DNA of 64,000 nucleotides from Candidatus Multivorans sp. (GCA_965205295.1 OZ242167.1:3826007-3890006); one strand, 5' to 3'; shown: positions 41,200-56,541, counted from the first letter of the stretch. A program made the numbers and translations. The notes: generated by a model not told the origin, from the letters alone.

Positions 41200-42474
41200 T
41201 TGCCCTGGCTGGCCAGCTCGGTAGCCGCGGTGCTGCTCGCGGTACTGGTAGCGGCCACGGCGGCGCCGTCGGCAGCGCAGACCGTGGTGGGCGGCGACGT
41301 GCGAATCTTTGCCTTCCAGGTCCTGGAAGAGATCGAGATCGGTGGGGACGGGGATGCTGCCGCCGAAGACGCCGGGTTGGGCGGCGCCGGCGGGGTGGAA
41401 CTCGGGATCTTCCGGCTCAAGCTCGATTCCCGCTGGCAAATGGGATCCCGAGACAGCTTCCGCCTCGAGGTGCACGGCGTGGCGCAGGCCGTGTCGCCAC
41501 CTGGCAGCGGCGCCGTCACGTCGGTGGCGACCGGCGCCACGCGGCGCTTCTTCGACCTGGAGTCCGACTCCTTTGGCCGCGGCGATGTGGCCGGCGCCGC
41601 CGAGATCGACCGCTTCAACCTGCGCTGGGACCGGCCCGGCTTCCGGATGGTCTTCGGCCGCCAGGCGATCACCTGGGGAGTGAACTACTTCTGGCCGGTG
41701 CTCGACCTGTTCGCCCCGTTCGCTCCGCAGCGCATCGATCGTGACTACAAGCCCGGAGTCGACGCGCTGCGGTTCACCGTGCCGATAGGCGACTTCTCCG
41801 AGGTCGAGGTCATCGCGGCCAGCCAGGGCGCGCGGACTCCCGACGACCTGAGCTTCGCCTCCCTGGGCCGCTTCCACAGCGAACTCGGCGAGGGCGATTC
41901 GAGCCTCGACTTCGGCTACATGGTCGGCGGCTTCCACCGCGACCTGGTCCTCGGCGGCTTCTTTTCGGCCGATGTCTGCGGCACCGGCCTGCGCGGCGAA
42001 GTCGCCTGGACCAGTCCGGGCTGCGACCCCCGGAGCGCTCACCCGGCGTTCGGCTGCGGCGACTTCTGGCGCTTCACGGTGGGCGTCGATCGCCTGCTGA
42101 CGCCGACCGTGACCCTGATCGCCGAGGCGAGCTGGAACGGCTTCGGCGCCGGCGACCCCGCGGACTACGCGCGGCTTGCCGGCGCCGACCGCGTAAGCCG
42201 TGGCGAGGTCGTTTCGCTCGGGCGCCGTTACGCCGGTCTCTCTCTGGGATGGCAGGCCCACCCGCTGCTGACCGTCAGCGGCGCCGTGCTCTTCAACCGT
42301 GGCGATTCCTCGGCGCTGTTTCAGCCCGGCATCGCCTGGTCCGTGTCCGACCACGTGGCGGTCAACGGGGGCCTGCTCCTGTCGACCGGCCGCGGCATCC
42401 GGGACGGCGTGCTGGGCAGCGAATACGGGGCGGTGCCGGTGGTGGCCTGGTCGTCCCTGACCGCCTACTTCTAG
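41200..42474 (+). CDS. putative outer-membrane beta-barrel protein (C-terminal Phe)
   Basis: A signal peptide (LPWLASSVAAVLLAVLVAATAAPSAAQ) is present. Alternating amphipathic beta-strand patterns are seen, and the C-terminus ends ...SLTAYF. The start is uncertain (TTG 41200 or GTG ~41140); the track ORF at 40735 overlaps the ATPase. Confidence 0.5.
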   Translation: MPWLASSVAAVLLAVLVAATAAPSAAQTVVGGDVRIFAFQVLEEIEIGGDGDAAAEDAGLGGAGGVELGIFRLKLDSRWQMGSRDSFRLEVHGVAQAVSPPGSGAVTSVATGATRRFFDLESDSFGRGDVAGAAEIDRFNLRWDRPGFRMVFGRQAITWGVNYFWPVLDLFAPFAPQRIDRDYKPGVDALRFTVPIGDFSEVEVIAASQGARTPDDLSFASLGRFHSELGEGDSSLDFGYMVGGFHRDLVLGGFFSADVCGTGLRGEVAWTSPGCDPRSAHPAFGCGDFWRFTVGVDRLLTPTVTLIAEASWNGFGAGDPADYARLAGADRVSRGEVVSLGRRYAGLSLGWQAHPLLTVSGAVLFNRGDSSALFQPGIAWSVSDHVAVNGGLLLSTGRGIRDGVLGSEYGAVPVVAWSSLTAYF

Positions 42475-42499
42475 AGCTCGGCGCTGCCCATCTTTACCA

Positions 42500-42560
42500 G
42501 TTGTTCACCTGCCGTGGGGTACGCTCCGCCAGCCTAAACAACTGTTCGACTACACGAGAT
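42500..42560 (+). promoter_or_regulatory. putative Pho-box-like operator upstream of pstS (inverted repeat ACCAGTTGTTCACC ... AAACAACTGTTCGAC)
   Basis: CAGTTGTT and AACAACTG are reverse complements, 25 nt apart. Each lies next to a GTTCACC/GTTCGAC half-site resembling actinobacterial PHO boxes. Location is the pstS 5' region. Confidence 0.3.
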
Positions 42561-43451
42561 TTGGCGCCTGTGAAGACCGCGAAAGTCACCTCCAGCGCAT
42601 GCTGTCTGGTCCTTGCGGCCCTGGTTGTTGCCTGCGGCGGCAGTTCCCGCAACGTGATCCAGAACAAGGGTTCGGACACCCTGGTCAACGTCGCCCAGGC
42701 GTGGGCCGAGAACTACGCGGCCGTGGTTCCGGGCACGGCCGTTGCGGTGACCGGCGGCGGCTCGGGCACGGGCATTTCGGCGATGATCAACGGCACCGTC
42801 GATATCGCGAACTCCAGCCGGCGCATGAAGGACTCCGAGATCGAGCTGGCGCGCGGAAATGGCAACGAACCGATCGAGTTCGTCGTCGGCTTCGACGCGG
42901 TGGCGGTGTTCGTCCATCCCGACAACCCGCTCGGCGAGGTCTCGCTGGAGCAGTTGGCCGAGCTCTACGGTGAGGGCGGCGGGTTCGAGACGTGGAGCCA
43001 GCTCGGCGTCGAGGTGCCGGGCTGCAGCAGCGACGAGATCGTCCGGGTCAGCCGTCAGAACAACTCCGGCACCTACGTCTACTTCCGTGAGGCGGTGCTC
43101 GGCGACCGGCGCGACTTCAAGCTCGGTTCGCGTGACATGCACGGCTCCAAGGACGTGGTCGACCTGGTCGAGAACACGCCCTGCGCGATCGGCTACAGCG
43201 GCCTCGCCTACGCGACGGACCACATCAAGATGCCCTGCGTCAAGACGGGCGAGGACGGCGATTGCGTGTCTCCTTCGGTCGAGACCGCGATCGACCGGTC
43301 CTACCCGATCGCCCGCCCCCTGTTCATGTACACCGCCGGCGAGCCCGAGGGCGCCATCCGCGACTACATGGACTGGGTGCTGAGCGACGAGGGCCAGTGC
43401 ATCATCTACGAGAAGGGCTACGCGCCGCGCGACGGCGTGAACTGTCCCTGA
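42561..43451 (+). CDS. pstS: phosphate ABC transporter substrate-binding lipoprotein PstS
   Basis: A lipobox LVVACGG is present. PstS-family motifs are TGGGSGTGISAMINGTVDIANSSR and GYSGLAY. The start is TTG 42561 or GTG 42570. Confidence 0.85.
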   Translation: MAPVKTAKVTSSACCLVLAALVVACGGSSRNVIQNKGSDTLVNVAQAWAENYAAVVPGTAVAVTGGGSGTGISAMINGTVDIANSSRRMKDSEIELARGNGNEPIEFVVGFDAVAVFVHPDNPLGEVSLEQLAELYGEGGGFETWSQLGVEVPGCSSDEIVRVSRQNNSGTYVYFREAVLGDRRDFKLGSRDMHGSKDVVDLVENTPCAIGYSGLAYATDHIKMPCVKTGEDGDCVSPSVETAIDRSYPIARPLFMYTAGEPEGAIRDYMDWVLSDEGQCIIYEKGYAPRDGVNCP

Positions 43452-43526
43452 ACCAGAGCTTCCAAGCACCAGAACTCCAGCATGACGCGGCGTCCGCAGT
43501 TTCTTGGCGGCTGGTTTGGCTGAGCT

Positions 43527-44525
43527 ATGAGCTTGCGCGGCAGGAGAATTGGCGTACCCCATACGCCACGGCGCAAGCTGCCGGCGCACGCGGCCGACCG
43601 GCGCGATTTCGCCTGGTGGATCGACCGGGCGGTGCAGGTCCTCGTCTTTGCGGGCGGCCTGTCGGCGATCGTCTTCATCGTCGGCATCTTCCTCTTCATC
43701 ACGCGGGAGGGCGCCGGCTTCGTTTTCGATCGCTTCGAGTTCCGCGAGTTCTTCTTCTCGCCGCGCTGGACGCCGACCTCGAACCACAACGCGACCTACG
43801 GCGCGCTGGCCCTGATCGCGGGCACGGCCTCGGTGACCGGGCTCGCAATGGTCGTGTCGGTGCCCTTCTCGCTCGGCGCCGCGATCTACATCGGGGAGTT
43901 CGCCACCGGCCGCACCCGGGAGACGTTGAAGGTGCTGGTGGAGCTCCTGGCCGCGATCCCGTCCGTGGTCTGGGGGTTTATCGGCCTCTCGATCATGAAC
44001 CCGTTGATCATCCAGATCTTCGACGTGCCGGTGGGCCTCAACGTACTGAACTCCGGGATCATCCTGGGTCTGATGGCGGCGCCGATCATGACCACGATCG
44101 CCGAGGACGCGCTCAAGGCGGTGCCCGACGGCTACCGGGAGGCCGCCGAGGCGATGGGCGCCACGCGCTGGCAGGTGACCTTCAAGGTCGTGCTGCCGGC
44201 CGCCCGCAACGGTCTGGTGGCGGCCACGCTGCTCGGTGTCGGGCGCGGCTTCGGCGAGACGATGGCGGTGCTCATGGCGAGCGGCCACTCGATCAACCTG
44301 CCGACCAGCCCCTTCGACTCGGTGCGGGCGCTGACCGCGACCATTGCCGCCGAACTCGGCGAGACGGCGGCCGGTTCCGACCACTACCAGGCGCTGTTCA
44401 CGCTCGGCATCTTCCTGTTCAGCGTGACCTTCGCCATCAACTTCGCGGCCGATGTCTTCGTTCGCGGCGGCCGGCGCAAGCACCGCCGCCGGGGCCGCCG
44501 CCCGGCCGCTTCGGCGAACCCGTAG
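43527..44525 (+). CDS. pstC: phosphate ABC transporter permease PstC
   Basis: A polytopic protein with the EAA-loop region AEAMGATRWQVTFKVVLPAA. Confidence 0.88.
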   Translation: MSLRGRRIGVPHTPRRKLPAHAADRRDFAWWIDRAVQVLVFAGGLSAIVFIVGIFLFITREGAGFVFDRFEFREFFFSPRWTPTSNHNATYGALALIAGTASVTGLAMVVSVPFSLGAAIYIGEFATGRTRETLKVLVELLAAIPSVVWGFIGLSIMNPLIIQIFDVPVGLNVLNSGIILGLMAAPIMTTIAEDALKAVPDGYREAAEAMGATRWQVTFKVVLPAARNGLVAATLLGVGRGFGETMAVLMASGHSINLPTSPFDSVRALTATIAAELGETAAGSDHYQALFTLGIFLFSVTFAINFAADVFVRGGRRKHRRRGRRPAASANP

Positions 44526-44543
44526 GGACGGAGGAGGAAACGC

Positions 44544-45413
44544 GTGTTCGAGGCGACCGAGCGCAACCGGCGCAACCGGAAGGTGGAGAGTCTGTTCCGA
44601 CTCCTCTTCCTGTGGATGACCTGCATGTTGATCGTGCCGGTCGCCCTCATCCTCGGCGTGCTGATCTACAAGGGCGGTCCGGCGATCTCCTGGGAGTTCC
44701 TGTTCACGTCGCCAACGAATGGGATGAAGGCGGGCGGCATCCTGCCCGCTCTGCTGGGCACCGTGTGGCTGGTGGTCGTGGCTCTGCTCGCCTCGGTGCC
44801 GGTCGGCGTGGGGGCGGCGCTCTACCTGAGCGAGTATGCACCGGACAATCGGCTCACCCGGGCCATCAACCTCGCGATCATCAACCTGGCCGGCGTGCCT
44901 TCGATCGTCCATGCGCTGTTCGGCTTGGGCGCCTTCGTCCTCTTCTTCCGCTTGGGCACCAGCATCCTGGCTGCCAGCCTGACCCTGGCGGTGATGACCC
45001 TGCCGGTGGTCATCGTCGCCACCAGGGAGTCGCTCCGGACCGTGCCGCTCGCCTTCCGCGAGGCATGCTGGAACATGGGCGCGACGCGCTGGCAGACGAT
45101 CCGCAAGGTCGTGCTGCCCAACTCGGTCAGCGGCATCCTCACCGGCGTCATTCTCGAGGTCTCCCGTACCGCCGGCGAGACCGCGCCGATCATGTTCACC
45201 GGCGCCGTGTTCTTCCTCCCGTTCCTGCCGCAGGGGGTGCTCGACGAGACGATGGCGATGTCGCTCCACCTGTTCGTCATCTCGACCCAGGTGCCGGAGG
45301 TGCCTGAGCACCTGCCCTTCGGCGTCGCGCTGGTGCTGATCTCCATGGTGCTGGCGATGAACGGGCTCTCCATCGCCTTCCGGGTCTATCTGCGGGGCCG
45401 CAAGAAGTGGTGA
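44544..45413 (+). CDS. pstA: phosphate ABC transporter permease PstA
   Basis: A polytopic protein with CWNMGATRWQTIRKVVLPNSVSGILTG. Confidence 0.88.
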   Translation: MFEATERNRRNRKVESLFRLLFLWMTCMLIVPVALILGVLIYKGGPAISWEFLFTSPTNGMKAGGILPALLGTVWLVVVALLASVPVGVGAALYLSEYAPDNRLTRAINLAIINLAGVPSIVHALFGLGAFVLFFRLGTSILAASLTLAVMTLPVVIVATRESLRTVPLAFREACWNMGATRWQTIRKVVLPNSVSGILTGVILEVSRTAGETAPIMFTGAVFFLPFLPQGVLDETMAMSLHLFVISTQVPEVPEHLPFGVALVLISMVLAMNGLSIAFRVYLRGRKKW

Positions 45414-46195
45414 GCGCTCCCGCGCCGGCGATCGCCGACTCCGACTTCGCGATCGACGTCGTCGACCTGGCGATTCGTTACCAGGGAAAGTTGGCGCTCT
45501 CGGGCGTCACGCTCCGGGTGCCAAGGAACGAGATCTTCGGCGTTATCGGGCCGGCGAACAGCGGCAAGACGTCCTTCCTGCGCGCCATCAACCGGATGGA
45601 CCTGATGACGGCGGGGATGACGGTCGAGGGCGCGGTGCGTGTCGAGGGCCGGGACGTCCGCAGTTGGCGCAATCCCTATGCCCTGCGACAGCGAATCGGC
45701 GTGGTGTTCCCGCTGCCTGTGGGCCTGCCGATGACCATCTACGAGAACGTCGCGCTGTCGTCCCGGCTGCGCGGCACGCGAAGGAAGGCCGACCTGGACG
45801 TGATCGTCGAACGCTGCCTGCGGCGGGCCGCGCTCTGGGACGAGGTGAAGGACCGGCTCGATTCCCTGGGCAGCCTGCTGTCGGGCGGCCAGCAGCAGCG
45901 GCTGACGATCGCGCGCGCGCTGTCCCAGGATCCGTCGATCCTGCTGCTCGACGAGTTCTCGATCGCGGTCGACCCCGTGACCACGATGCGGATCGAGGAG
46001 GTGCTGGCGGAGCTCAAGTCCGAGATGACGATCGTGCTGGTCACGAACCTCGTCCAGCAGGCGCGGCGGTTGGCTTCGCAGACCGCCTTCTTCCTCACCG
46101 GCGAGCTGGTCGAGGTGACCGAGACGGAGGCGATGTTCGAGGGCGGCGCCCAGGATCCGCGGACCACTGCCTACGTCGAGGGGAAGTTCGGATGA
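45407..46195 (+). CDS. pstB: phosphate ABC transporter ATP-binding protein PstB paralog 1 (H-loop His replaced: TNLVQQA)
   Basis: Walker A is GPANSGKTS, the signature LSGGQQQRL and Walker B LLLDEF. The canonical PstB THNMQQA H-loop reads VTNLVQQA. The GTG start overlaps the pstA stop. Confidence 0.85.
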   Translation: MVSAPAPAIADSDFAIDVVDLAIRYQGKLALSGVTLRVPRNEIFGVIGPANSGKTSFLRAINRMDLMTAGMTVEGAVRVEGRDVRSWRNPYALRQRIGVVFPLPVGLPMTIYENVALSSRLRGTRRKADLDVIVERCLRRAALWDEVKDRLDSLGSLLSGGQQQRLTIARALSQDPSILLLDEFSIAVDPVTTMRIEEVLAELKSEMTIVLVTNLVQQARRLASQTAFFLTGELVEVTETEAMFEGGAQDPRTTAYVEGKFG

Positions 46196-47007
46196 CCGAG
46201 GCAACTCCCGCGACGGGAGCGATGCCCGCGGCCGCCGATCCGGCCGCGGCGATCCTGATCGAGAAGCTGAACCTCTGGTACGGCGACTTCCAGGCCCTGT
46301 TCGACGTCGACCTGAACGTGAAGGCGGGCGCGATCACCTCCCTGATCGGCCCCTCCGGATGCGGCAAGACGACCTTGCTGCGCTCGGTCAACCGGATCAA
46401 CGAACGCCTTCCGTACGTGCGCACGTCGGGCCGCATCCGGCTGTGGGGCCTGGATGTCTACGCCCCGGCGGTCGAGCTGGCTCAGCTCCGCAAGCAGATC
46501 GGCATGGTCTTCCAGCGTCCGAACCCGTTGCCGCTGTCGGTGCGGGACAACGTGCTGTTCGGGACTCGAGTCCACCGCCCGAACGAGCGCCCGCCGACCA
46601 GGGTCGAAGGCGATCGGATCGTCGAAGAGGCGCTGCGCGAGGTTCTGCTCTGGGACGAGCTGAAGGACTCGCTCGACCGGCGCGGCACAGAACTCTCGCT
46701 CGAGCAGCAGCAGAAGCTGTGCATCGCGCGTCTGCTGCCGGTCAAGCCGAAGCTCCTGCTGATGGACGAACCCTGCTCGGCGCTCGACCCCGCCGGCACG
46801 GAGGCGGTCGAGGAGCTGATCTGGAGGCTGCGCGGCGAGTACACGATTCTGATCGTTACCCACAACATGGCGCAGGCCCGGCGCGCGAGCGAGGAGTGCG
46901 TGTTCATGCTGCTCGGCGAGATGGTCGAGCACAGCGACACGGCGTCGATGTTCCTCAACCCGGCAAACAGCCAGACTGCGGCCTACATCGAGGGTCGGTA
47001 CGGGTAG
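46192..47007 (+). CDS. pstB: phosphate ABC transporter ATP-binding protein PstB paralog 2 (canonical H-loop THNMAQA)
   Basis: Walker A is GPSGCGKTT, the signature LSLEQQQKL, Walker B LLLMDEP and H-loop VTHNMAQA. The ATGA start overlaps the pstB1 stop. Confidence 0.88.
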   Translation: MTEATPATGAMPAAADPAAAILIEKLNLWYGDFQALFDVDLNVKAGAITSLIGPSGCGKTTLLRSVNRINERLPYVRTSGRIRLWGLDVYAPAVELAQLRKQIGMVFQRPNPLPLSVRDNVLFGTRVHRPNERPPTRVEGDRIVEEALREVLLWDELKDSLDRRGTELSLEQQQKLCIARLLPVKPKLLLMDEPCSALDPAGTEAVEELIWRLRGEYTILIVTHNMAQARRASEECVFMLLGEMVEHSDTASMFLNPANSQTAAYIEGRYG

Positions 47008-47074
47008 CTGGCGGCGTGCCCAGCGTTCCGCGCGACGAAACGGGACCTGACGAAGCCATTTCCACAGGGATCCG

Positions 47075-47533
47075 TCAGCAGTTTCTCCCCCGGAATTCTC
47101 CCGCGGCCTCCGCGCTCCGTACCCATGCCGCGACATCGTCAATCAAGTGCACGAATCTGCGTTTCCCCGGCCCGCGCAGCGCGCATTCCCATACCGTCAG
47201 GCAACGCCATCCCGCCACGCGCAGCGCATTCCGAACCTCTGCGTCACGTTCTTGGTTGCGCCGGATCTTGCCGTCCCAGAAGTCCGTTCTGGTGGCCGGA
47301 CGCTGGAATAGCGGACAATCGTGCCCGTGCCAGAAGCACCCGTGAACCAAGACGGCGGCACGGAACCGTGGCAGTACGATATCCGGCTTGCCGGGCAGCT
47401 CCGCCACATGGGTGCGATACCTGAATCCGCGCGCATGGAGCGCTTTCCGGACCGCCATTTCCGGTGCCGTGTTCTTGCTTCGCACCGAGGCCATAAGGCG
47501 GCTTCGCGAACGCCGGTCCAGGCTGTCGGCCAC
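47075..47533 (-). CDS. vsr: very-short-patch-repair endonuclease Vsr
   Basis: The 152-aa product has FVHGCFWHGHDC and TDFWDGKIRRN(QE)RD motifs. It is the last gene of the minus-strand array dcm-X-Y-vsr. GTG start. Confidence 0.88.
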   Translation of the reverse strand: MADSLDRRSRSRLMASVRSKNTAPEMAVRKALHARGFRYRTHVAELPGKPDIVLPRFRAAVLVHGCFWHGHDCPLFQRPATRTDFWDGKIRRNQERDAEVRNALRVAGWRCLTVWECALRGPGKRRFVHLIDDVAAWVRSAEAAGEFRGRNC

Positions 47534-47568
47534 GAAGCGCTCCTCCTTGCTGGGAAGGTTCCTGGGCC

Positions 47569-48588
47569 CTAAAGACGAATGTCCGGCTGGCCTTGACGTG
47601 CGTAGAACGAGGAAAACCTGGAGATGATGTCTTTGATGAAACTCGGAGCGATGCGCACGTTCAAGGACTGAAAGCTCCTTTCAAACCCCTCCCACGGTGC
47701 CGTCTCGAGCCGTCGAAAATCTACGAAGCCGGCCGCTATGCCACCAGACTGCGGCAACCAGTGGAAGTAGTTGGAGTCGTTGTTCTTCCTCAACCGCTTC
47801 TGGCGCTTGCGGTCCGCTCCTACTCTCTCGAACAGGGCTTCCTCAGGCACGACTTCCGCCACCACCACGATGTCAGTCTTGGGCTTTCCGCTGGGTCGAA
47901 TCACTAGGTCGCATGCGGGCGTCATCACCACGTGAGAAGTCTCTCCATCCGTCCGCCGAACAAGGGTCCCCGTCTGCAGCGAGTCCTTAAGTGGCGGGGC
48001 CAGGTACACTTCCTCGGCGTAGCAAGGCGTTTCATCCGCCTCCAACTCCGCCGCCAAGTGGCCCAGGGTGTAGCGCAACAGCGCCTTCTTGGTCCGCTCC
48101 TTATCCTCTCGCCCATAGTCCACCCACATGTCGATCGTCGGAAGCAGGTTCGCTAGGAAGACTCCGTTCAGTCGTTCCTCCAACAGCCCCCGGCCGCCCA
48201 TGATCTCGGTCAGGCCGACGTCGAAAATCTCCCAGAGGCGGTCCAAGATCTCGTCGAACCCATGTTTACCCTTGGTGTAGACACCGACGACGGGCGGCTC
48301 ATCTACCGCGTCGGCGGGCGTTCCTGTCAGGACCGCGACCGGAACGCGGAAGTGGCTCTTGAGCTCTTCAATGACCTCTCCACCGTCGGAGGTGTCCCTG
48401 CCTAGGTTCAGGTCGACGATAGCTGCGTCAATCGACCCGTCCAGACTGCTCTTCGCATCGGCCAAGGTTGTCTGAACACGCATCTCTATCTGCCGGCCGT
48501 GCTCTTCGACGTAGTCCTTGAGAACCTCTCGGTATTCATCCACCAAGCTGGGCTCGTCCTCCACCAACAGCAGTTCAAGCGCACTCAC
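47569..48588 (-). CDS. response-regulator receiver (REC) domain protein with ~220-aa C-terminal domain of unknown function (candidate effector)
   Basis: The REC landmarks are LLLVEDE (acidic pocket), AAIVDLNLG (phospho-acceptor Asp), VAVLTG (Thr) and YTKGKH (Lys). The C-terminal half (…PACDLVIRPSGKPKTDIVVVAEVVPEE…NYFHWLP…) matches no family recognisable by eye. The GTG start with a GGAGAA RBS overlaps the upstream kinase stop (GTGA). Confidence 0.75.
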   Translation of the reverse strand: MSALELLLVEDEPSLVDEYREVLKDYVEEHGRQIEMRVQTTLADAKSSLDGSIDAAIVDLNLGRDTSDGGEVIEELKSHFRVPVAVLTGTPADAVDEPPVVGVYTKGKHGFDEILDRLWEIFDVGLTEIMGGRGLLEERLNGVFLANLLPTIDMWVDYGREDKERTKKALLRYTLGHLAAELEADETPCYAEEVYLAPPLKDSLQTGTLVRRTDGETSHVVMTPACDLVIRPSGKPKTDIVVVAEVVPEEALFERVGADRKRQKRLRKNNDSNYFHWLPQSGGIAAGFVDFRRLETAPWEGFERSFQSLNVRIAPSFIKDIISRFSSFYARQGQPDIRL

Positions 48589-50756
48589 GCCGGTTCTCCA
48601 TCTTCTGCACCGCCGGTGTCGACGGGCTGAAGCCGGAACCACGCGCCACCTTCGTGCTCCATGGCCTTTAGTTCCAGGCCGTTTCTAGTCGCTGCTTCCC
48701 CGGCAATCGCGAGTCCCAGCCCCATGCCGTCCGGCTTCGTCGAGAACTGCGGCTCGAAGACCACTCCGCTCACGATGTGTTCAGGTTCGATTCCAGGACC
48801 CGTGTCAGTGTAGTCAACGTGCAGCAACCTCTCGTCGTCGGTCGAGATCGCTATCTCTATGCGCTTTTCGGCAGCCTTGGTTGTGTGTAGCCAGTAGAGG
48901 CTGTTGTCGATCAGGTTCGTGAAGATCGCTTGAATGTCCTGCCGCCAGCATGGGTACTTGACCGATCTATCGCCGACAATGCGGCAAGTCACACCCGCTC
49001 GGTCCAATTCTCCAGAAAACGTATCCTGAGCGCGCCGGATGACCCTGAGCAACACTTCCGACTTCCTGCGGGAACGACGTTGCGCCGCCAACGGATCAAG
49101 CCGGCCGAACAGCGTTACCAAGTCGCTCGCGTTCTCCGCTATGCCCGTTGCCCCATCCACTATCTTCGGCACTAGGATCGGGTCGCGCGTCTTCTCGAAG
49201 CGAGTGGCGTGTTTCCGGAGGAGCGGGAATTGGTTGCGGAAGTAGCTCAACGGCCGGCGGCCCTCGTGGAGCACGACGTTGATGATCTTGCCCAGTGTCG
49301 CCTGGCCTTGGTACACCGCAATCGCGTCGCGCAATCGCCTGACAGTCTCGCTTCGCTGCTGCTCTTCGGACTCGATCAGGGCGATCACTTCGGCAGCGGT
49401 CGTGTCGCTCACCCGGGCTCCGCGTAGCGTAGACCGGACTTCGCGCTTCAGAGCATCGAAGGAGTAGAGCCTCTCCAGTTGGCGCTCGACTTTGAACGTC
49501 TTCCTGCCCAAGCCGGCGCGCTGCCGGTACAAGTAGCGTTTCTCCTCCAGCCTGGCGATCACTTTCGTGGTGATGTCCTTCAGCCGGCCGAAGGCCTCGT
49601 TATCGATGAGTCCGTCCCTCGCGCTCTTCTCGATAAGCTGCGATTGTTCTTCCGACTGGATCTGGACGTAGCCGATGACTTGGTTGTTGCCGATGCGAAA
49701 GGCGGGCCTCTGCACGCGCTGCTCGTTGAGTTTGAGCCAGTCGAACTCGGGATCGCCCAGCGGGCGCAGGCGGAATCCGTTCCTGTACACGCCGATACCG
49801 TTGTATTTGTTCAATAGTTGTCGTGTTTGAAGCCTGCCTAAGTAGTTCCCGAGGGCGTCCTTCAACCCACGGCGAATGAGCTGGTCCACCGAGGCTGGAT
49901 CCCGGTCGTAAACCCGAATATCGATCTCAAGCTCCCCGCACCCGGAAGGCCCTTCTAAGTCAATGAGGATCTCTTCGTCCACCGCGTTTCGCGACTTTTG
50001 CTGAGAGTACACGACGGACCCAGTTCCGTCGGCCCCTATCTTGCCCGCGATCCGATAGTCGAAGTGTTCAACGAGCGGAAAGGGTTCCACCTGAGCGTTC
50101 ATATCGTGCACGCCAGGCAGGTCGGAGATGCGGAGAACTACGTCAAAGGGCTGCTCGGTCGCCATTGTCAAAAAGGGAGACATCAGCTTCCTGAGCTCGA
50201 ACTGCAGCTTGTTGAACTGTGAGTCGCTCCAAGGCGGAAGGCTCTTCTCGTCGACGGCCATGGTCAGCGTCGTTCCTGCCTCCTGCTCGACTGACTCCGT
50301 CTCGATCAGGATCTCCACGTCCTCCAGATACTCGGCGCGCTCGAAATCGGCCCATTGGAGGTAGAGGGTGGTCTTCTCTCCAGAGGCCGTCGTTGTCTCT
50401 AGGAGAAGGTCCTTGCCAAGGATCGAGGCTGCGTAGCGGCCGATTCCCTTCCGGCCCTGCATGGTCCTGCCAGCCGGGCTGTGGCCGTCCCGGTGATCTT
50501 TGTCCGGTGTTGACGGGACCATCCACTTGTTGATGACCGTGTCGCGCGTCATGCCGTGGCCGTGGTCGGCGAACTTGATCTGAAACTCGCCATTGCCGGT
50601 CCGCTCGAACGCGATTACCGCGTCCGGCGAGTCTGCGTCGTAGGCGTTCTTGACGAGCTCGATGACCGCCGCATGCGGATCCTGGACCAAGTCGCGTCCG
50701 ATCGTCAGGATGTGCCGTCCGGCGGGCCGGATCCTGTATGAGCCAGACTTAGGCAT
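48585..50756 (-). CDS. fusion protein: N-terminal Bergerat-fold GHKL ATPase (MutL/MORC-like) + C-terminal histidine-kinase core (H-box, N/G1/G2 boxes)
   Basis: The N-terminal motifs are ELVKNAYDA (motif I), DHGHGM (motif II) and GRKGIGRYAA (GxxGxG). The C-terminal H-box is VLHEGRRPLSYF. About 110 aa later come the N-box NLIDNSLYW, G1 DTGPGI and G2 GMGLGL. The ATG at 50756-50754 overlaps the last codons of dcm. Confidence 0.75.
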   Translation of the reverse strand: MPKSGSYRIRPAGRHILTIGRDLVQDPHAAVIELVKNAYDADSPDAVIAFERTGNGEFQIKFADHGHGMTRDTVINKWMVPSTPDKDHRDGHSPAGRTMQGRKGIGRYAASILGKDLLLETTTASGEKTTLYLQWADFERAEYLEDVEILIETESVEQEAGTTLTMAVDEKSLPPWSDSQFNKLQFELRKLMSPFLTMATEQPFDVVLRISDLPGVHDMNAQVEPFPLVEHFDYRIAGKIGADGTGSVVYSQQKSRNAVDEEILIDLEGPSGCGELEIDIRVYDRDPASVDQLIRRGLKDALGNYLGRLQTRQLLNKYNGIGVYRNGFRLRPLGDPEFDWLKLNEQRVQRPAFRIGNNQVIGYVQIQSEEQSQLIEKSARDGLIDNEAFGRLKDITTKVIARLEEKRYLYRQRAGLGRKTFKVERQLERLYSFDALKREVRSTLRGARVSDTTAAEVIALIESEEQQRSETVRRLRDAIAVYQGQATLGKIINVVLHEGRRPLSYFRNQFPLLRKHATRFEKTRDPILVPKIVDGATGIAENASDLVTLFGRLDPLAAQRRSRRKSEVLLRVIRRAQDTFSGELDRAGVTCRIVGDRSVKYPCWRQDIQAIFTNLIDNSLYWLHTTKAAEKRIEIAISTDDERLLHVDYTDTGPGIEPEHIVSGVVFEPQFSTKPDGMGLGLAIAGEAATRNGLELKAMEHEGGAWFRLQPVDTGGAEDGEPA

Positions 50757-52011
50757 GCCAATCCTCTCGGATCCGGGCCGCGATCCCGCGGGACAAGAGC
50801 ACGGGGACTGCGTTGCCGATCTGGCGAAACGCGTGTGTCCGTGACGGCCGCAGCCCGACGCCTTCGAAGTAGTAGTCGTCGGGAAAGGTCTGCAGCCGCG
50901 CCGCCTCCCGCGGCGTGATGGACCGGTTCTGTTCAATGTCGGGGTGAATGTAGTAGTGACCATCCTTGCAGATGTGGGCGACCACGGTGTGCGCGAACGG
51001 CAAGTTTCCCGCCACGACCTTGAACCTGTCCATGAACGCGGCCTTGTTCCGGTGGGTCTTGAGGTGCGGCGGCAATGTGCTGTATCGCAGCCTGGATCGC
51101 CGTTCGTTCCACTCCGTCACCGCTATACGGTAAATCTCGAGATCCCGCTCCGTATGAGGGCGCGCCTGATGCCAAGTCAACGGCAGCGAGCCGCTGACAC
51201 CCGCCTCGACTTGCCACGTGCTCTTGCACGGCAGGCGATGGCACGGCGCGACATCGCCTTCTCCGGCACTAAGCGGGGGCAGGCCCCCGAAGGCCTCGCT
51301 CACGGTGACATCCGGCGCCCACCGCCTCGGCTCAGGGTAGACAGCCGTGCTGCCTTCGCAATGCCCGACCAAGACCACACGTCTCCTGTTCTGCAGCACT
51401 CCGTAGTCCTTCGCGCTCAGGATGCGAAAGCGAGTGTCGTAGCCTAGCTTGCTGAACAAGCGCCGCATGGCGTCCAAGTAACTCGCCCCGTCGCGGTCCT
51501 TGGCCGAAAGAAGCCCAAGGACGTTCTCGAACACGAACACCTTGGGGCGGTACTTCTCCAAGAACTTCGCATAGCACTTGTAAAGGTGATTTCGGTTGTC
51601 CGCCACCATGCCCTTGGGGTCGCGAGAGCGACCGACGATGGAGTAGGCTTGGCAGGGAGGGCCGCCGATGAGCAGGTCCAGTTCGTGCCCGTCCAACCGG
51701 GAGTCGATCTCGCCGTAGATCCGCCGCAAAGTGTCTGGCCGTATCTCCTCGTTGATGACAGAGCGCACAACCTGTTGCGGCACTGCCGCGTACAGCATGT
51801 CCCGGTCGATACTGCCTGCTAGGTAGTCCGCGTACACGTCCTCACGACCGGCTGCTACGAGCCAGTGATAGGCCATTCGGGTACGCAGGGTGTTGCATGC
51901 CGCCGCATCCGTCTCGACATGCGCGATGGGCTGGTAGCCCTCCTGTATGAAACCTTCCGAGAGTCCGCCGCCGCCAGCAAAAAGGTCGACGAAACTCAAT
52001 CGATTACGCAT
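50749..52011 (-). CDS. dcm: DNA (cytosine-5)-methyltransferase (Dcm-like)
   Basis: The C5-MTase motifs are I FVDLFAGGGG, IV GGPPCQAYS, VI ENV and X QIGNAVPV. The start was set at ATG 52011 (MRNRLSFVDLFAGGGG) with an AAGGAA RBS. The track TTG start is at 52041. Confidence 0.88.
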   Translation of the reverse strand: MRNRLSFVDLFAGGGGLSEGFIQEGYQPIAHVETDAAACNTLRTRMAYHWLVAAGREDVYADYLAGSIDRDMLYAAVPQQVVRSVINEEIRPDTLRRIYGEIDSRLDGHELDLLIGGPPCQAYSIVGRSRDPKGMVADNRNHLYKCYAKFLEKYRPKVFVFENVLGLLSAKDRDGASYLDAMRRLFSKLGYDTRFRILSAKDYGVLQNRRRVVLVGHCEGSTAVYPEPRRWAPDVTVSEAFGGLPPLSAGEGDVAPCHRLPCKSTWQVEAGVSGSLPLTWHQARPHTERDLEIYRIAVTEWNERRSRLRYSTLPPHLKTHRNKAAFMDRFKVVAGNLPFAHTVVAHICKDGHYYIHPDIEQNRSITPREAARLQTFPDDYYFEGVGLRPSRTHAFRQIGNAVPVLLSRGIAARIREDWHA

Positions 52012-52198
52012 TCCGGCTGGTTCCTTTGTTCGCACGCTCAAACTCCGCCGATTGTAGACGAGCCAGCGTGACGGCCGATCCTAGCAGGTCACGGGCGCGT
52101 CTCCAGTCATCGAGTCGCTTGCCGCGCTCGTCGCTGGAGGGAAAACTAGGGGATCTTTTCAAAACAAAGGCTCCCGACGGCAATTGCGAGAGGCTCCC

Positions 52199-55100
52199 TT
52201 ACGCCGGTCGTGTTGGTTTGCCGCCGTGGACCGTTGGTTCCGCGCACCACTGGCGACGGAGCAGGTCCAGTGGATCGAGCAGTTCGTTCGGCAGGCCAAG
52301 CACGTCGATCAACACTGCCCGGTCAAGCGCGATGCGGTTCTCGTCGCGGTAGGCCTCGTTGGCGGGCAGGAACGCGGCTTGGCGGAACCCCTCCAGCAAG
52401 CTGGCCGCCTGGGTGATCTGCTTCTCGTCCAGCGCCCGCGGGTCGAGTACGGGGAGTCGAGGAAGCCTGCTGATCGTCAGTATGACACGGCCCTGCTGCT
52501 GCCGGCTCCCGTGCCACCAGAAGGTCATCATGCCCAAGGTGGTGTTTGCCCACAGCAGCACGGCGGACGACCAAGCCTCGTCTTCCAGCTTGAAGTTGGG
52601 CCAAGCCCTGCCGCCCAGCGTCTTGCGCCGCGTCACGCAGGCGGCGAGGGGCTGCGAGTTCAGTTGGAAGTCGAGGCTGAAGTGGAGTCGACTCGCGGTC
52701 CGCCGCCAGGTTCGTGCGGCCCGGTCTGCACAGTTCGGCCGTGGCTGCCCGAAGGAATCCGGCTCGATCTCCAGATGCCGTTCCCGCGCCGCATCATGGC
52801 TCCATAGCGCCGGATAGGTCGGCACTCGACCTTCTTCCCAGGGACGAATGTCGAACGGACCGCGCGGCGGCTTGTCCTCTCCGGGAGGAGTGCCGTTGAT
52901 GTCCCTGTGAACCAGGCCGCGACTGCCGATGGAACCCAGTGGCGCGACCGGGGTCCGGTGTTCCTGCGAGAGCCGGGGCAGGACAAGCCTTCCGTCGTCA
53001 AGAGCTAGCATCGTCCGAGCGAGACCTGGTTCGACGATCGATGCTGCGCCCCCGTTGGTCAGGCCGGTGCGCACGAAAGTGCCGCTCGTCTGGCAGGGCG
53101 TGAGCTCGATCAAGCCCGTGCCTCCGGGGAGATCGCGTATTCGGCGAGCTACGCTGACGGCCTCCAGAACCGTCCGCGGCCGCTTCCGCAGGCTGGCGAA
53201 CAGGGTTTCCGGACCTTGGAGGGGGATTCTCGCTACAGAGCCGAGAGCCTTGGTGCCGACGAGGAGCACCTCAGCCATGCCCGTGTCAGCGGAGAAAGCG
53301 CGGTCGGTCGTCCCCGTAGCGGCGATGGAGACAACGGTCAGATCGCTGAAGAACCCGGCGAGGAGACGACGCGCGGCGTTCCAGGATTCCCCCTGGACAA
53401 ACGAGGCGGGCAGCACAAGGGCCAGGATGCCGCCTGGGCGCAGCTTCAGGTGGGCTAGGTCGACGAAGTTCGACGCCAAGCCGGCGTTGCCGTGCCCGGC
53501 GGAAATCTCCAGCCCGGCTCTCAGTTCCTTCAAACGCCGTGACATCACCCGCTGCTCTTCGGCGCTGGTCGCGAAGCCCGCGAAGGACGGGACAGGAACA
53601 TCCGTGGACTCGTGGTTTGTTGGCCGCGTGAAAGGCGGGTTCATGATGACGAGATCGAAGCTCTCGTTCGGCACCTCCACGATCTTCGGGTCTACGGTCG
53701 ATGCGCCGCCGTGAAGCTCGACGACTCCGGTGTCGAATAGAGGCAGCACACGCTCGTCCGCCAGCAGGTCCAGCGAGCCGATGGCATGCCGACCGCCGCC
53801 TTGCTCTGCTTCGCCGTAGGGCATGGTGTAGATGCGCGTTCGTTTGAAAGGTTGCTGCGGATGGGCGCTGGAGAGAATCGCTGCCGTCAGGTGCGTCGCT
53901 GCCGGCATGATGTCGGCGCCGGTCAACACCTGCTCCATCATCTCGTGGTGGAGCTTCCGGTCGTCGCGTCCGGCCCGCCGCAGCCTTGCGCCCACCCGGT
54001 GCTGGACCGCCGACAACAGGGCGCCGGTGCCGCATGCGAAGTCGGCGATTCGCAGGCGCGCTACCGCTGCTTCGTCGGCCCAGTCGACGTTGAGTCTGGC
54101 GGCCGCCAGTTCGGCAAGCAGGTGAGCGCTGGCTGGGAGCGTGTAGAAGGTGGCCAGGAACTTCCGGTCGCTGATCAGGCGCTGGAACAGAATGCCCGAC
54201 AGATCCTGGATCGTGGTGGCGCCGAGACCCGCGAGTTGAGACGCAGCGTCGATCAGTCTGCCAAGGCACTGCTCAGTCTCACGCTCCGGGATCACCCTCA
54301 GCACGTCGTAGGCGATCTCGAAGATCGGCCAGTAGTCGATGTCGAGCACCTGCTCCCAGGCCCGCAGAACGCGCCTCTTCGAGGTGTTCCCGTGCTTGCT
54401 GCTCAGAGCACTCAAGTCAGGGATGTCCTGGACTCCCGCTATGGCGGACTGAAACAGCAGCGCGTCGAGCAGGATTGCCATCGCCATGCGGGTGGTCTGC
54501 TCGCAGTCTTCCTGGTGTAGAGCGCTTGCAATCCGGCGCAGAACCTCCGGACTGCGGTCGGGTGCCGATCGTCGAAGCCGCTCCGCAGTGGTTCGGACCG
54601 CCCGTTCGAGCAGTTCCAGCCCCTCAGCAATTCGCTGTTCCGAGAGGGACACCTGTTCGACGCAGTCGGCAAGTTCGTCGATTCCGCCTTCAAGCCAATC
54701 GCTTCCGGGCCAGCGTTGAACCGCGCGGCCTTCAAGGGGCGAGCCGGAGAAGGTGCACCATCGGAAACGCCCAGACAGGATGCCGGGACCAAGGTCGCCG
54801 CCGCCTTCGCCCAGATGACCGGGGATGCGCACCGCTAAAACCGCCTCAAGGAGGTCGCCCGTGTCGTGCAACACGCGGCCCAGTCGATTCTTCGCGTCGT
54901 CTTCAACGGTGCGCGCTGGCTCGTACTCGGTCTCCAGGACGACCGGCATGCCGGCTGGGGGCCGCACGACAATGTCCGGTTGGGCACCCGCGTACTCCCT
55001 GATCACTCCCGTTTCTTCGGCCGCTATCCTCCACGAGTCAGGGAGTTTCCGGCTGAGTACGGTAGCCAGGGCGTTGTTGAACGCGGTCTCGACGGTGCGG

Positions 55101-55237
55101 GGCACGGATGCCCGATCATACGGGGTACATCCAACGGTCCGCGCATGTGGGCCCGACAGGAGGGGCTTTGTGGACCAATGGAGCCCGTACCCGATCAGTC
55201 GCGGCCCTGTGAGCATGGAGCGGCTCGGCTGTGCCAT
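52199..55237 (-). CDS. large N6-adenine DNA methyltransferase-domain protein (Type IIG/IIL or BREX-PglX-like; possible N-terminal PD-ExK-like nuclease)
   Basis: The ~1010-aa product has motif I IADFACGTGALL and motif IV VIMNPPF about 115 aa later. The N-terminal ~280 aa contain QPDIVV...VLETEYE. A long C-terminal region is TRD-like. The start was set at ATG 55237, 35 bp from the divergent ATPase gene. Confidence 0.65.
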   Translation of the reverse strand: MAQPSRSMLTGPRLIGYGLHWSTKPLLSGPHARTVGCTPYDRASVPRTVETAFNNALATVLSRKLPDSWRIAAEETGVIREYAGAQPDIVVRPPAGMPVVLETEYEPARTVEDDAKNRLGRVLHDTGDLLEAVLAVRIPGHLGEGGGDLGPGILSGRFRWCTFSGSPLEGRAVQRWPGSDWLEGGIDELADCVEQVSLSEQRIAEGLELLERAVRTTAERLRRSAPDRSPEVLRRIASALHQEDCEQTTRMAMAILLDALLFQSAIAGVQDIPDLSALSSKHGNTSKRRVLRAWEQVLDIDYWPIFEIAYDVLRVIPERETEQCLGRLIDAASQLAGLGATTIQDLSGILFQRLISDRKFLATFYTLPASAHLLAELAAARLNVDWADEAAVARLRIADFACGTGALLSAVQHRVGARLRRAGRDDRKLHHEMMEQVLTGADIMPAATHLTAAILSSAHPQQPFKRTRIYTMPYGEAEQGGGRHAIGSLDLLADERVLPLFDTGVVELHGGASTVDPKIVEVPNESFDLVIMNPPFTRPTNHESTDVPVPSFAGFATSAEEQRVMSRRLKELRAGLEISAGHGNAGLASNFVDLAHLKLRPGGILALVLPASFVQGESWNAARRLLAGFFSDLTVVSIAATGTTDRAFSADTGMAEVLLVGTKALGSVARIPLQGPETLFASLRKRPRTVLEAVSVARRIRDLPGGTGLIELTPCQTSGTFVRTGLTNGGAASIVEPGLARTMLALDDGRLVLPRLSQEHRTPVAPLGSIGSRGLVHRDINGTPPGEDKPPRGPFDIRPWEEGRVPTYPALWSHDAARERHLEIEPDSFGQPRPNCADRAARTWRRTASRLHFSLDFQLNSQPLAACVTRRKTLGGRAWPNFKLEDEAWSSAVLLWANTTLGMMTFWWHGSRQQQGRVILTISRLPRLPVLDPRALDEKQITQAASLLEGFRQAAFLPANEAYRDENRIALDRAVLIDVLGLPNELLDPLDLLRRQWCAEPTVHGGKPTRPA

Positions 55238-55272
55238 GATGCCGTCATATTTCCCGGAACAATGACGGCGAC

Positions 55273-56433
55273 ATGTACAACGAACCCTATCCCCGACTCT
55301 CCCGCCTTCCGGGTCGGAGCTTCTTCCTGCTCGGCGTCCGAGGGGTCGGCAAGAGCACTTGGGCCCGGCAGAACCTCGGCGACGCTCACCGGGTTGACCT
55401 GCTAGACGAAGCGCGCTTTCACGACTACTTGGTCGATCCGGCGTTGTTCGCGGCGGAACTGCGGTCGGTTCCACCCGGAGGCTGGGTGGTGGTCGACGAG
55501 ATTCAGCGCCTGCCGAACCTGCTGAACGAGGTTCATCGGTTCATCGAAGGGCATCGGCTCCGCTTTGCACTCCTCGGGTCCAGCGCCCGAAAGCTGAAGG
55601 CGGCTGGAGTCAACCTGCTGGCGGGGCGAGCGCTGCGCCGGATGATGCACCCTCTGACGCCGGCGGAACTCGGCCGCGAGTTCGACTTCGAGGCCACACT
55701 TCGATGGGGAACCATTCCACTCGTTTGGACCGCCGAGGACCGGCGCGCGACGCTCGAGAGCTATGTGCAGCTCTACCTCCGTGAGGAGATCCGGGCCGAG
55801 GCACTGGTGCGGAATCTGGCCGGCTTCGCCCGTTTCCTGCAGGTTGCCGCTCTCTGTCATGGAGCCACCGTCAACGTGTCGGGCATCGCGCGCGAGTGCG
55901 GCGTCGCCCGAACCACCGTGCAGGGATACCTGGACATCCTGGAAGACACCCTGCTGGCGTACAGGCTGCCAGCCTTCGAAGCGAAGCTGCGCGTGCGCGA
56001 GCGCCGTCACCCGAAGCTCTACTGGGTCGACCCGGGGCTCGTTCGGGCGACGAAGCGGCTTTTCGGTCAGGTCGCGCCCGAGGAGCGCGGAACGCTCCTC
56101 GAGGGATGGGTGCTGCACCTGCTCCGAGCGCACGGGGAGGAGACCGACCTGTACGAGGCGGTCCACTACTGGAGCCCGCACTCCGCGGCCCACACTGAGG
56201 TGGACTTCCTCCTGCGCCGTGGCCGCGAGTTACTGGCGATCGAAGTGAAGTCCCAGGCCAGGTACCACACGGGTCTGCTCCGCGGCTTGCGCGCGGTGGC
56301 CGAACTGGCCGGCATGAGCCGGAGGATCCTCCTGTACGGCGGCAGGCGATCGTTTCGCACCGAAGACGGTATTGAAGTTTGGACGTTCGACGATCTGCAC
56401 CAGGCATTGGCGGAGGATGCGCTCTGGCCGTGA
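55273..56433 (+). CDS. AAA-family ATPase with C-terminal DUF4143 (AAA_14/DUF4143 family)
   Basis: Walker A is LLGVRGVGKST and Walker B VVVDEIQ. The C-terminal DUF4143-like region is RRHPKLYWVDPGL. Confidence 0.75.
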   Translation: MYNEPYPRLSRLPGRSFFLLGVRGVGKSTWARQNLGDAHRVDLLDEARFHDYLVDPALFAAELRSVPPGGWVVVDEIQRLPNLLNEVHRFIEGHRLRFALLGSSARKLKAAGVNLLAGRALRRMMHPLTPAELGREFDFEATLRWGTIPLVWTAEDRRATLESYVQLYLREEIRAEALVRNLAGFARFLQVAALCHGATVNVSGIARECGVARTTVQGYLDILEDTLLAYRLPAFEAKLRVRERRHPKLYWVDPGLVRATKRLFGQVAPEERGTLLEGWVLHLLRAHGEETDLYEAVHYWSPHSAAHTEVDFLLRRGRELLAIEVKSQARYHTGLLRGLRAVAELAGMSRRILLYGGRRSFRTEDGIEVWTFDDLHQALAEDALWP

Positions 56434-56541
56434 TGGGGTCAGTCGGCCTGGACCGCTTGCAGCCTCGGCCAGGCCGCGGCTCGGCTCGCTGTGGCATCAT
56501 CGACCGCTGTTCCGGAATACGCGTCGAATGGGAGGCAAGGT

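Follow-up and report, generated by a model that had tools for sequence, protein, structure and literature searches.

The response regulator encoded by the gene designated here as REC-X, located in a 64,000-nucleotide stretch of Candidatus Multivorans sp. DNA that was analyzed in full (hereafter the window), carries behind its receiver (REC) domain an output half that is predicted to adopt the fold of the MazF/CcdB toxins. The system as a whole has already been described, and the new element is this fold for the output half. On the basis of the structural models, we class the system as a two-component module with a paraMORC kinase and a receiver to which a predicted MazF/CcdB-fold domain is attached. 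In terms of function, we tentatively propose that REC-X may be a phospho-activated toxin effector, probably an RNase, within a dedicated cytoplasmic two-component system linked to a Dcm cassette that often includes Vsr; the two-gene module itself is most likely a methylation-linked defense or addiction system.

A kinase and response regulator gene pair in a methyltransferase cassette

In the ORF list of the window, the longest open reading frame at this position spans 47569-48642 on the minus strand. The alignment of homologues places the start further inside, at the GTG codon at 48588, which reads MSALELLLVEDEP and is the start common to all REC-X homologues; this start shares four nucleotides, GTGA, with the stop of the upstream kinase gene. 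An overlap of the GTGA type is the usual mark of translational coupling. Together, the alignment and the overlap fix the start of REC-X at 48588, thereby confirming both the reading frame and the start codon given in the first-pass annotation of this DNA. A scan for promoters and terminators yielded no signal above background. The coordinates of the genes and of the domains defined in them are summarized in Table 1.

Table 1. Genes and protein domains of the cassette, with positions counted from the first nucleotide of the window
Feature	Position	Strand	Details
REC-X gene	47569..48588	-	339 aa, GTG start, stop codon included
Receiver (REC) domain, residues 1-120	48229..48588	-	predicted phospho-acceptor D59, codon 48412-48414
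Glycine-rich hinge GLTxIMGGRG (residues 125-134) and long helical hairpin (134-161, 163-184)	48019..48228	-	AlphaFold2 secondary structure
MazF/CcdB/Kid-fold domain (predicted), residues ~196-339	47572..48003	-	fold predicted
Cognate cytoplasmic kinase, 723 aa	48585..50756	-	Pfam HATPase_c_3 1.6e-18, HATPase_c 2.7e-17
N-terminal paraMORC-type GHKL ATPase module, kinase residues ~20-170	50247..50699	-	PDB and NCBIfam matches
DHp and catalytic (CA) core, kinase residues 463-709	48630..49370	-	aligns to FixL DHp+CA, E 8.5e-11
C5 DNA cytosine methyltransferase (Dcm)	50749..52041	-	PF00145 E 1.8e-52; stop overlaps kinase start by 8 nt
Vsr very-short-patch repair endonuclease	47075..47533	-	PF03852 E 9.1e-31; 35 nt downstream of REC-X

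REC-X belongs to a large family, with 826 homologues at E ≤ 1e-3, and its C-terminal domain alone is represented by 1079 clusters at 50% identity (613 at E ≤ 1e-10), numbers that place the family far beyond chance. In the full-length matches, the C-terminal domain begins at about residue 120, behind REC. The gene order dcm, kinase, REC-X, vsr is conserved over many phyla, and in the window the cassette has a GC content of 59-63% as against 67-70% in its flanks. The host phyla comprise Acidobacteriota, Proteobacteria, Poribacteria, Latescibacterota, Chlorobi, Bacteroidota, Spirochaetes, Desulfobacterota, Nitrospirae and Chloroflexi.

To describe the neighborhood, loci were gathered from genomes (80), metagenome assemblies (4) and plasmids (6). 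The kinase lies immediately upstream of REC-X in 84 of 87 loci, that is, in all loci not cut by a contig end. Among the 68 distinct well-flanked loci, Dcm adjoins the pair on its upstream side in 54 (79%), and 61 (90%) have some DNA methyltransferase within a few kb. Vsr, a mismatch-specific nicking enzyme, is encoded within the same distance in 29 (43%), in most cases as the next gene downstream; it also forms the largest downstream gene cluster, with 32 loci. Conversely, about 20% of the well-flanked loci are without an adjacent Dcm and about 10% without a detectable methyltransferase, so that a dependence on methylation is not obligatory. A further downstream cluster, present in 10 mostly poribacterial loci, resembles in its DPPY motif a type III Mod-like methyltransferase.

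Distant members carried on plasmids, at 21-38% identity, always consist of kinase plus REC-X. Their hosts are Enterobacter, Bacillus, Hymenobacter, Acaryochloris and Fusobacterium, together with 39 Campylobacter plasmids, most of which are conjugative, and a dcm gene is annotated near the plasmid members in all but the Enterobacter and Fusobacterium records. The linkage of kinase and methyltransferase still holds at 21-31% identity on the Bacillus, Hymenobacter, Campylobacter and Acaryochloris plasmids. The 90% cluster of the Enterobacter protein includes Klebsiella proteins, and searches of complete E. coli genomes returned no DNA match to the Yersinia or Enterobacter loci. Defense islands and mobile elements, including conjugative plasmids, make up the neighboring genes. 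A viral origin is unlikely, since only 2 matches were found in 2.9 million viral contigs.

The downstream gene clusters of the collected loci contain no recurrent antitoxin-like gene, and no antitoxin adjoins REC-X, its upstream neighbor being the kinase and its downstream neighbor Vsr or a variable gene; neither a tandem-repeat array nor antitoxin RNA repeats were found. In one lineage (L004/L011) a MazE-family gene lies downstream, and this arrangement is not recurrent. A third REC gene is absent from the cassette. Moreover, neither sequence nor fold searches detected a recognizable nuclease domain in the kinase or in REC-X; the cassette shares Dcm with a classical type II restriction-modification system but has no restriction endonuclease partner with a recognized nuclease fold, Vsr being specific for mismatches and missing from 57% of the loci.

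The receiver domain and its cognate kinase

The receiver of REC-X adopts the (β/α)5 fold and presents the landmarks of phosphorylatable receivers in their usual places: E10/D11 after β1, D59 at the end of β3, T88 at the end of β4 and K106 after β5. In a set of 36 sequences, D11, D59, T88 and K106 are invariant and E10 is nearly so (at least 90%). The wider set of 82 diverse homologues extends to 25% identity; conservation there is no lower than 98% for D11, D59 and T88 and no lower than 80% for K106. The assignment of the four landmarks made beforehand from the DNA is correct. At the level of sequence, the match of REC-X to Pfam PF00072 (21.3 bits, E 3e-4) falls below the gathering score of 30.2, with sub-threshold matches likewise in 22 of 36 relatives, and the best PDB sequence match is the single-domain regulator SdrG (E 1.3e-3). 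The receiver is, in short, divergent by sequence and clear by fold. It is also very acidic, with a pI of 4.4.

The kinase contains two ATP-binding modules, assigned by Pfam to HATPase_c_3 at the N-terminus and to HATPase_c at the C-terminus. Its residues 27-130 match MORC3 (E 1.7e-5) and MutL (0.015) among PDB sequences, and the best NCBIfam match of the N-terminal module is the N-terminus of the BbrUII/HgiDII restriction enzymes (E 1.5e-12); PADLOC returned for the kinase only a weak REase_II match. The Bergerat motifs of this module (ELVKNAYDAD, DhGHGM, KG.GRYA) show 80-95% conservation over 75 kinase homologues. The H-box of the C-terminal core reads LHEGRRPL and contains H497 (codon 49266-49268), which is at least 95% conserved in the same homologues, and conservation of the N, G1 and G2 boxes is no less than 80-95%. 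On account of this conservation, both ATP-binding modules and the phosphorylation site look functional. The kinase of the near-identical contig L001 was likewise called at 723 aa. REC-X and the kinase form a complete His-Asp pair encoded by overlapping genes, in which the MORC-like ATPase is the only candidate input module.

Predicted structure and conservation of the output domain

For the C-terminal half of about 220 residues, searches of Pfam, NCBIfam, PADLOC, PHROGs and PDB gave no sequence match, in accordance with the first-pass annotation, which held that it resembles no familiar output domain. This description stands at the sequence level and fails at the level of fold, where two independent methods yield the MazF/CcdB/Kid/ToxN fold with a clear gap to unrelated matches. 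In the full-length model, residues ~200-320 have a block-mean pLDDT of ~86-95, and the predicted domain has the SH3-like barrel with a C-terminal helix that characterizes MazF, Kid and CcdB. Among type III toxins, the fold matches include CptN (7.3), AbiQ (6.1) and ToxN (5.5). Particular to the predicted domain are a basic two-helix insert at residues 249-272 and an invariant YARQGQP tail at residues 329-335. The structural search returned no canonical DNA-binding output domain, the outcome that would have made REC-X an ordinary transcription factor, and the wHTH is absent from the fold-search matches; what was obtained instead is a toxin fold.

The predicted likeness of REC-X to MazF and CcdB lies at the fold level only. 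A profile search of the C-terminal domain against PDB sequences recovered no toxin at E ≤ 10, the Pfam PemK and CcdB models have no match in REC-X or in the relatives scanned, and hhalign against E. coli MazF, with a MazF sequence identical to PDB 3nfc and 1ub4, returned a probability of 0.2%. When the sequences were read by eye, no counterpart of the Arg/Thr catalytic pair of MazF could be identified, and the positions where it would be expected do not look conserved. The family has in its place an invariant set of its own, formed by E137, W155, R172, E193, Y195, G207, P224, C226, D227, F291, K319, R331, Q332, G333 and P335. In the region of the hinge and hairpin, G125, T127, I129, G131, G134, E137, W155, R172 and H177, among others, are at least 97% conserved. 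Of the acidic and histidine residues, to which the first-pass annotation had pointed, E137, E193 and D227 are invariant, H177 is at least 97% conserved, and H276 is 99% conserved yet replaced in Campylobacter.

In terms of charge, the MazF-like domain has a mildly basic median pI of 8.4, and its insert, at 9.7, is strongly basic. A PD-(D/E)xK nuclease and a Cys-His protease, considered for the motifs TPACDL and YHWLP, were both dropped, given the MazF-like fold prediction and the replacement of H276 in Campylobacter. Among the full-length matches, the output domain has no partner other than the REC-X receiver, except in one Dcm fusion; this 571-aa protein was rejected as an alternative partner, being a deletion or a chimera. 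The short form that was sampled, P0127, sits at the end of a 1.5-kb contig.

Relationship to described systems

A computational study by Bellieny-Rabelo et al. 2021 (PMC8011034) already presented this architecture, which its authors called the most prevalent: a soluble HATPase_c_3 + DHp + HATPase_c kinase adjoining a REC-like protein, C5 methylases on the upstream side, and Vsr in most cases as the immediate downstream neighbor. The REC-like protein was said to be one that 'lacks any other known domain', a role in regulating restriction-modification (R-M) systems was proposed, and the C-terminal half was given neither fold nor function (PMC8011034). The cassette examined here has the same gene architecture (C5 methylase, kinase, REC-like gene and Vsr), and the two sets have taxa in common, namely Yersinia, Klebsiella, Serratia, Geobacter, Chlorobi and Hymenobacter. 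[quoted passage not shown] From this absence of matches, REC-X and its kinase form either a sister family or one beyond the reach of those models; the system is of the same kind as that of PMC8011034 but is not filed under PF19192/PF19191.

The ATPase module connects the kinase with an older description. The paraMORC ATPases were tied to methylases, Vsr and nucleases in R-M operons by Iyer, Abhiman and Aravind 2008 (PMC2292703), and the present kinase resembles them in having an N-terminal GHKL module with intact ATP motifs beside cytosine methylases and Vsr. In paraMORC, BbrUII and HgiDII proteins, however, nucleases or helicases are the fusion or operon partners of GHKL+S5, whereas here the module is fused to a histidine-kinase core expected to signal to the REC protein with the predicted toxin fold.

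Two defense systems built on two-component signaling offer functional comparisons. Ambrosia (AbrR/A/B/C/D), a validated phage defense of Pseudomonas aeruginosa, consists of an XRE regulator, an N6 methylase, an HATPase/histidine kinase, a REC+wHTH protein and a type IV HNH nuclease (10.1101/2025.09.30.679545). Every gene is needed for defense, as is the receiver residue Asp60 (D60A abolishes it); the response regulator AbrC is put forward as a transcription factor, the nuclease has a gene of its own, and reporter genes within the cluster are induced upon infection (10.1101/2025.09.30.679545). Like Ambrosia, the present cassette brings together genes for a DNA methyltransferase, an HATPase/histidine kinase and a REC protein; by its description, Ambrosia differs in having an N6-adenine methylase, a short response regulator of the REC+wHTH type and a separate HNH gene, whereas the cassette has Dcm, no XRE or HNH gene, and a REC domain fused to a predicted MazF fold.

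Loci with the gene order of Ambrosia occur among the distant relatives, at 25-30% identity to the kinase of the window. In Deinococcus gobiensis, an XRE gene, an Eco57I-type methylase, the kinase, a 215-aa response regulator and an HNH gene are present; in Burkholderia, an N6 methylase and the kinase are accompanied by a 228-aa response regulator and a metallo-β-lactamase-fold hydrolase; and in Pseudanabaena, the kinase is found with a 226-aa protein and a metallo-β-lactamase-fold hydrolase, with no methylase annotated nearby. The short regulators of these Ambrosia-like loci align with REC-X over the receiver part only.

In the Detocs system (DtcA/B/C), the kinase senses infection and transfers phosphate to a REC domain fused to a toxic effector, a domain that is replaceable (10.1101/2023.01.24.525353). 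Detocs has a TPR kinase, the buffer receiver DtcB and mostly PNP effectors, and the D58A substitution abolishes defense (10.1101/2023.01.24.525353). The analogy with such defensive systems, which was the basis on which the first-pass annotation named the C-terminal half as a candidate effector, holds for the operating logic and goes no further in the components: the cassette encodes neither a TPR sensor nor a separate buffer receiver, effectors of the PNP, REase, TOPRIM or TM type are missing from it, its kinase has a GHKL/MORC-like N-terminus and is methylase-linked, and in PADLOC REC-X has no match to Detocs or any other model. Ambrosia, a distant relative and the only validated one, has a proposed transcription factor as its regulator and a separate nuclease gene.

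With respect to toxins of the MazF/Kid/PemK, CcdB and ToxN/AbiQ/CptN groups, REC-X is predicted to share the fold and is without sequence similarity, an identifiable Arg/Thr pair, an antitoxin gene or RNA repeats. The predicted domain differs moreover from MazF and CcdB toxins in its two-helix basic insert, its conserved tail and its covalently attached receiver. Literature searches turned up no earlier account of a MazF/CcdB-fold domain joined to a receiver.

Proposed mechanism and alternative explanations

In the mechanism proposed for the toxin effector, the MORC-like module would read a DNA-related cue, for which the most economical guess is DNA lacking the 5-methylcytosine mark of the cassette itself, present either as invading DNA or after loss of the cassette. 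This cue would induce autophosphorylation of the kinase at H497 and transfer of the phosphate to D59, upon which the phosphorylated REC domain may free or dimerize the MazF-fold domain. Once freed, this domain would be toxic, most likely as an endoribonuclease, and cause growth arrest or abortive infection, the module standing where a simple methylase-nuclease pair would have its restriction endonuclease. Dimers are the active form of MazF-type toxins, and phosphorylation leads REC domains to dimerize.

The strongest indirect argument for the effector reading is one of substitution: relatives of the kinase are accompanied by a short regulator and a separate HNH or metallo-β-lactamase nuclease gene, and the Dcm cassette has no such nuclease gene but some 220 extra residues fused to REC. 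The predicted toxin fold of these residues fits their designation as a candidate effector, and the failure to identify the MazF catalytic residues does not. The essential receiver aspartates of Detocs (D58A) and Ambrosia (D60A) count in favor of the effector reading, as do the intact receiver and kinase, the toxin fold obtained by two methods and the adjacency of kinase and methyltransferase, and the acidic receiver beside a basic toxin-fold domain invites the speculation that the receiver might serve as a built-in antitoxin. Several observations count against a toxin: the likeness to MazF and CcdB is one of fold only; the catalytic residues of MazF could not be identified and the family has a different invariant set; some loci lack a linked methylase, and the Ambrosia regulator is proposed to be transcriptional. 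Promiscuous toxin modules are usually shuffled between systems, and the domain has never been seen shuffled to other systems, which is likewise held against the toxin reading.

A more elaborate version of this proposal takes the cassette as an R-M-like discriminator of self and non-self in which a phosphorelay has replaced the nuclease. The MORC clamp would read 5-methylcytosine, His-Asp transfer would follow, and a receiver-fused MazF-fold RNase would respond, so that methylation would be coupled to abortive infection or post-segregational killing without DNA cleavage and the receiver would serve as a covalent antitoxin under phosphorylation control. In this complete form we regard the scheme as rather doubtful.

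One alternative is a regulatory output, in which REC-X would be a phospho-controlled transcriptional or protein-binding regulator of the expression or activity of Dcm/Vsr or of an unlinked nuclease, and the MazF-like domain a non-toxic module binding nucleic acid or protein. The unidentifiable catalytic residues, the confinement of the output domain to the REC-X receiver and the basic character of the MazF-like domain all agree with such a role. Precedents are AbrC, described as REC plus wHTH, in a cluster whose reporters are induced on infection (10.1101/2025.09.30.679545), and the regulation of R-M systems proposed in PMC8011034. We consider a regulatory role unlikely.

The position of the module tightly between dcm and vsr, together with the MutL/MORC-like N-terminus of the kinase and the finding that MutL interacts with and stimulates Vsr (PMC2292703), would suit an accessory of methylation maintenance or repair, in which kinase and REC-X would help Dcm and Vsr, for instance by detecting T:G mismatches or hemimethylated sites for nicking by Vsr, with no immune or addiction role. 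The pair is intact, however, although Vsr is missing in 57% and Dcm in 21% of the well-flanked loci; a His-Asp phosphorelay with a toxin-fold end is without precedent in repair; and the neighbors are defense genes and mobile elements, including conjugative plasmids, all of which makes a repair function very unlikely. It is similarly improbable that the REC-X domain traps DNA gyrase or another topoisomerase in the manner of CcdB, causing DNA breaks rather than RNA cutting, given that most characterized members of the fold, and most of the fold matches, are RNases, that REC-X has no sequence similarity to CcdB, and that the domain is basic, as nucleic-acid binding would predict.

Implications for methylation-linked signaling

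Pairs of a paraMORC kinase and a receiver protein beside cytosine methylases are common, occurring in many phyla, on conjugative Campylobacter plasmids and on Klebsiella and Enterobacter plasmids, and the role of the output domain has been a blank since the first description in 2021. A toxin fold on the receiver, as predicted here, gives the vague notion of 'a regulator of R-M systems' the form of a specific mechanism open to experiment. If the toxin effector reading is true, the module would join Detocs and Ambrosia as a third kind of two-component signaling in defense, and would be an instance of a MazF/CcdB-fold domain placed under the control of phosphorylation rather than of an antitoxin. 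It would also provide a handle on the cues that are sensed by bacterial MORC-like ATPases.

Genomic context of the cassette in the window

The cassette, comprising dcm, the paraMORC-type histidine kinase gene, REC-X (a receiver protein with a predicted MazF/CcdB-fold domain) and vsr, is abutted on one side by a phosphate ABC transporter operon. The same island was found on a metagenomic contig (L001), which matches window positions 46393-56488 at 98% identity and encodes an identical REC-X. The two sequences diverge at approximately 46393, within the second pstB-like gene, which indicates a rearrangement beside the island in a related strain. The features surrounding the cassette, together with downstream genes found at other loci, are summarized in the table.

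On the opposite flank, the large protein shows only weak matches to N6-methyltransferases (Eco57I, E = 5e-4; PADLOC MTase_II, 4.7e-13; MADS-system MAD2, 3e-9). In PADLOC, the neighboring ATPase was a match for defence candidate PDC-S01 (E = 2.9e-52). Only about 5 of the 87 cassette loci also carry the large protein, so it probably represents a separate, uncharacterised system that shares the low-GC island with the cassette.

Genes flanking the cassette and downstream genes at related loci
Feature	Location	Strand	Remarks
Phosphate ABC transporter operon (pstS, pstC, pstA, two tandem pstB-like ATPase genes at the end)	window 42249-47007	+	annotation read from ORF translations
Large protein, 1005-1091 aa	window 52199-55474	-	upstream of dcm
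Divergent AAA_14/DUF4143 ATPase	window 55273-56433	+	adjoins large protein
MazE/AbrB-family (PF04014) gene, 88 aa	L004 9222-9488		163 nt downstream of REC-X
Gene for ~540-aa protein	L016, L024, L028, L033, L053, L065, L066, L075		directly 3' of REC-X

Variation in downstream partners and distribution of the pair

Candidatus Poribacteria, which are sponge symbionts, are strikingly over-represented among genomes carrying the kinase/REC-X pair, and it is in mostly poribacterial loci that Vsr is replaced by a ~540-aa protein. Judged by its DPPY motif, this protein looks like a type III Mod-like methyltransferase; dcm is missing from some of these loci. The MazE/AbrB-family gene, found in one Pseudomonadales MAG (L004, the same locus as L011), is of interest since the output fold of REC-X is MazF-like, and did not recur across the other loci.

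The pair also occurs on 39 plasmids of approximately 50-75 kb from Campylobacter jejuni, C. coli, C. lari and C. armoricus, sharing 24-25% identity with the window pair. Most plasmid matches in the search that identified them (L087, H7-H25) were typed as conjugative. In pCA639-1 (L087), the pair is followed by a convergent dcm. The plasmid proteins have replaced H276 of REC-X and some other otherwise invariant residues.

Fused and alternative output domains

In a metagenomic protein of 571 aa (P0121), the first ~335 residues of Dcm run straight into the end of the receiver, followed by the complete MazF-like domain, with neither the kinase nor most of REC. P0121 arose either by deletion or as a chimera of the assembly; should it be genuine, it would constitute a naturally occurring 'unregulated' form of the output domain.

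Distant paraMORC kinases (L091, L092, L093 and L094) are paired with outputs other than REC-X. In Deinococcus, for example, the kinase is associated with a short response regulator and an HNH protein, in a gene order resembling that of the phage-defence system Ambrosia, while in Burkholderia and Pseudanabaena the short response regulator is accompanied by a metallo-beta-lactamase-fold hydrolase. The Agrobacterium kinase is paired with a 433-aa protein in which no domain was detectable, adjoined by AbiE and vsr/dcm. These varied outputs point to a modular family of paraMORC-kinase-driven systems.
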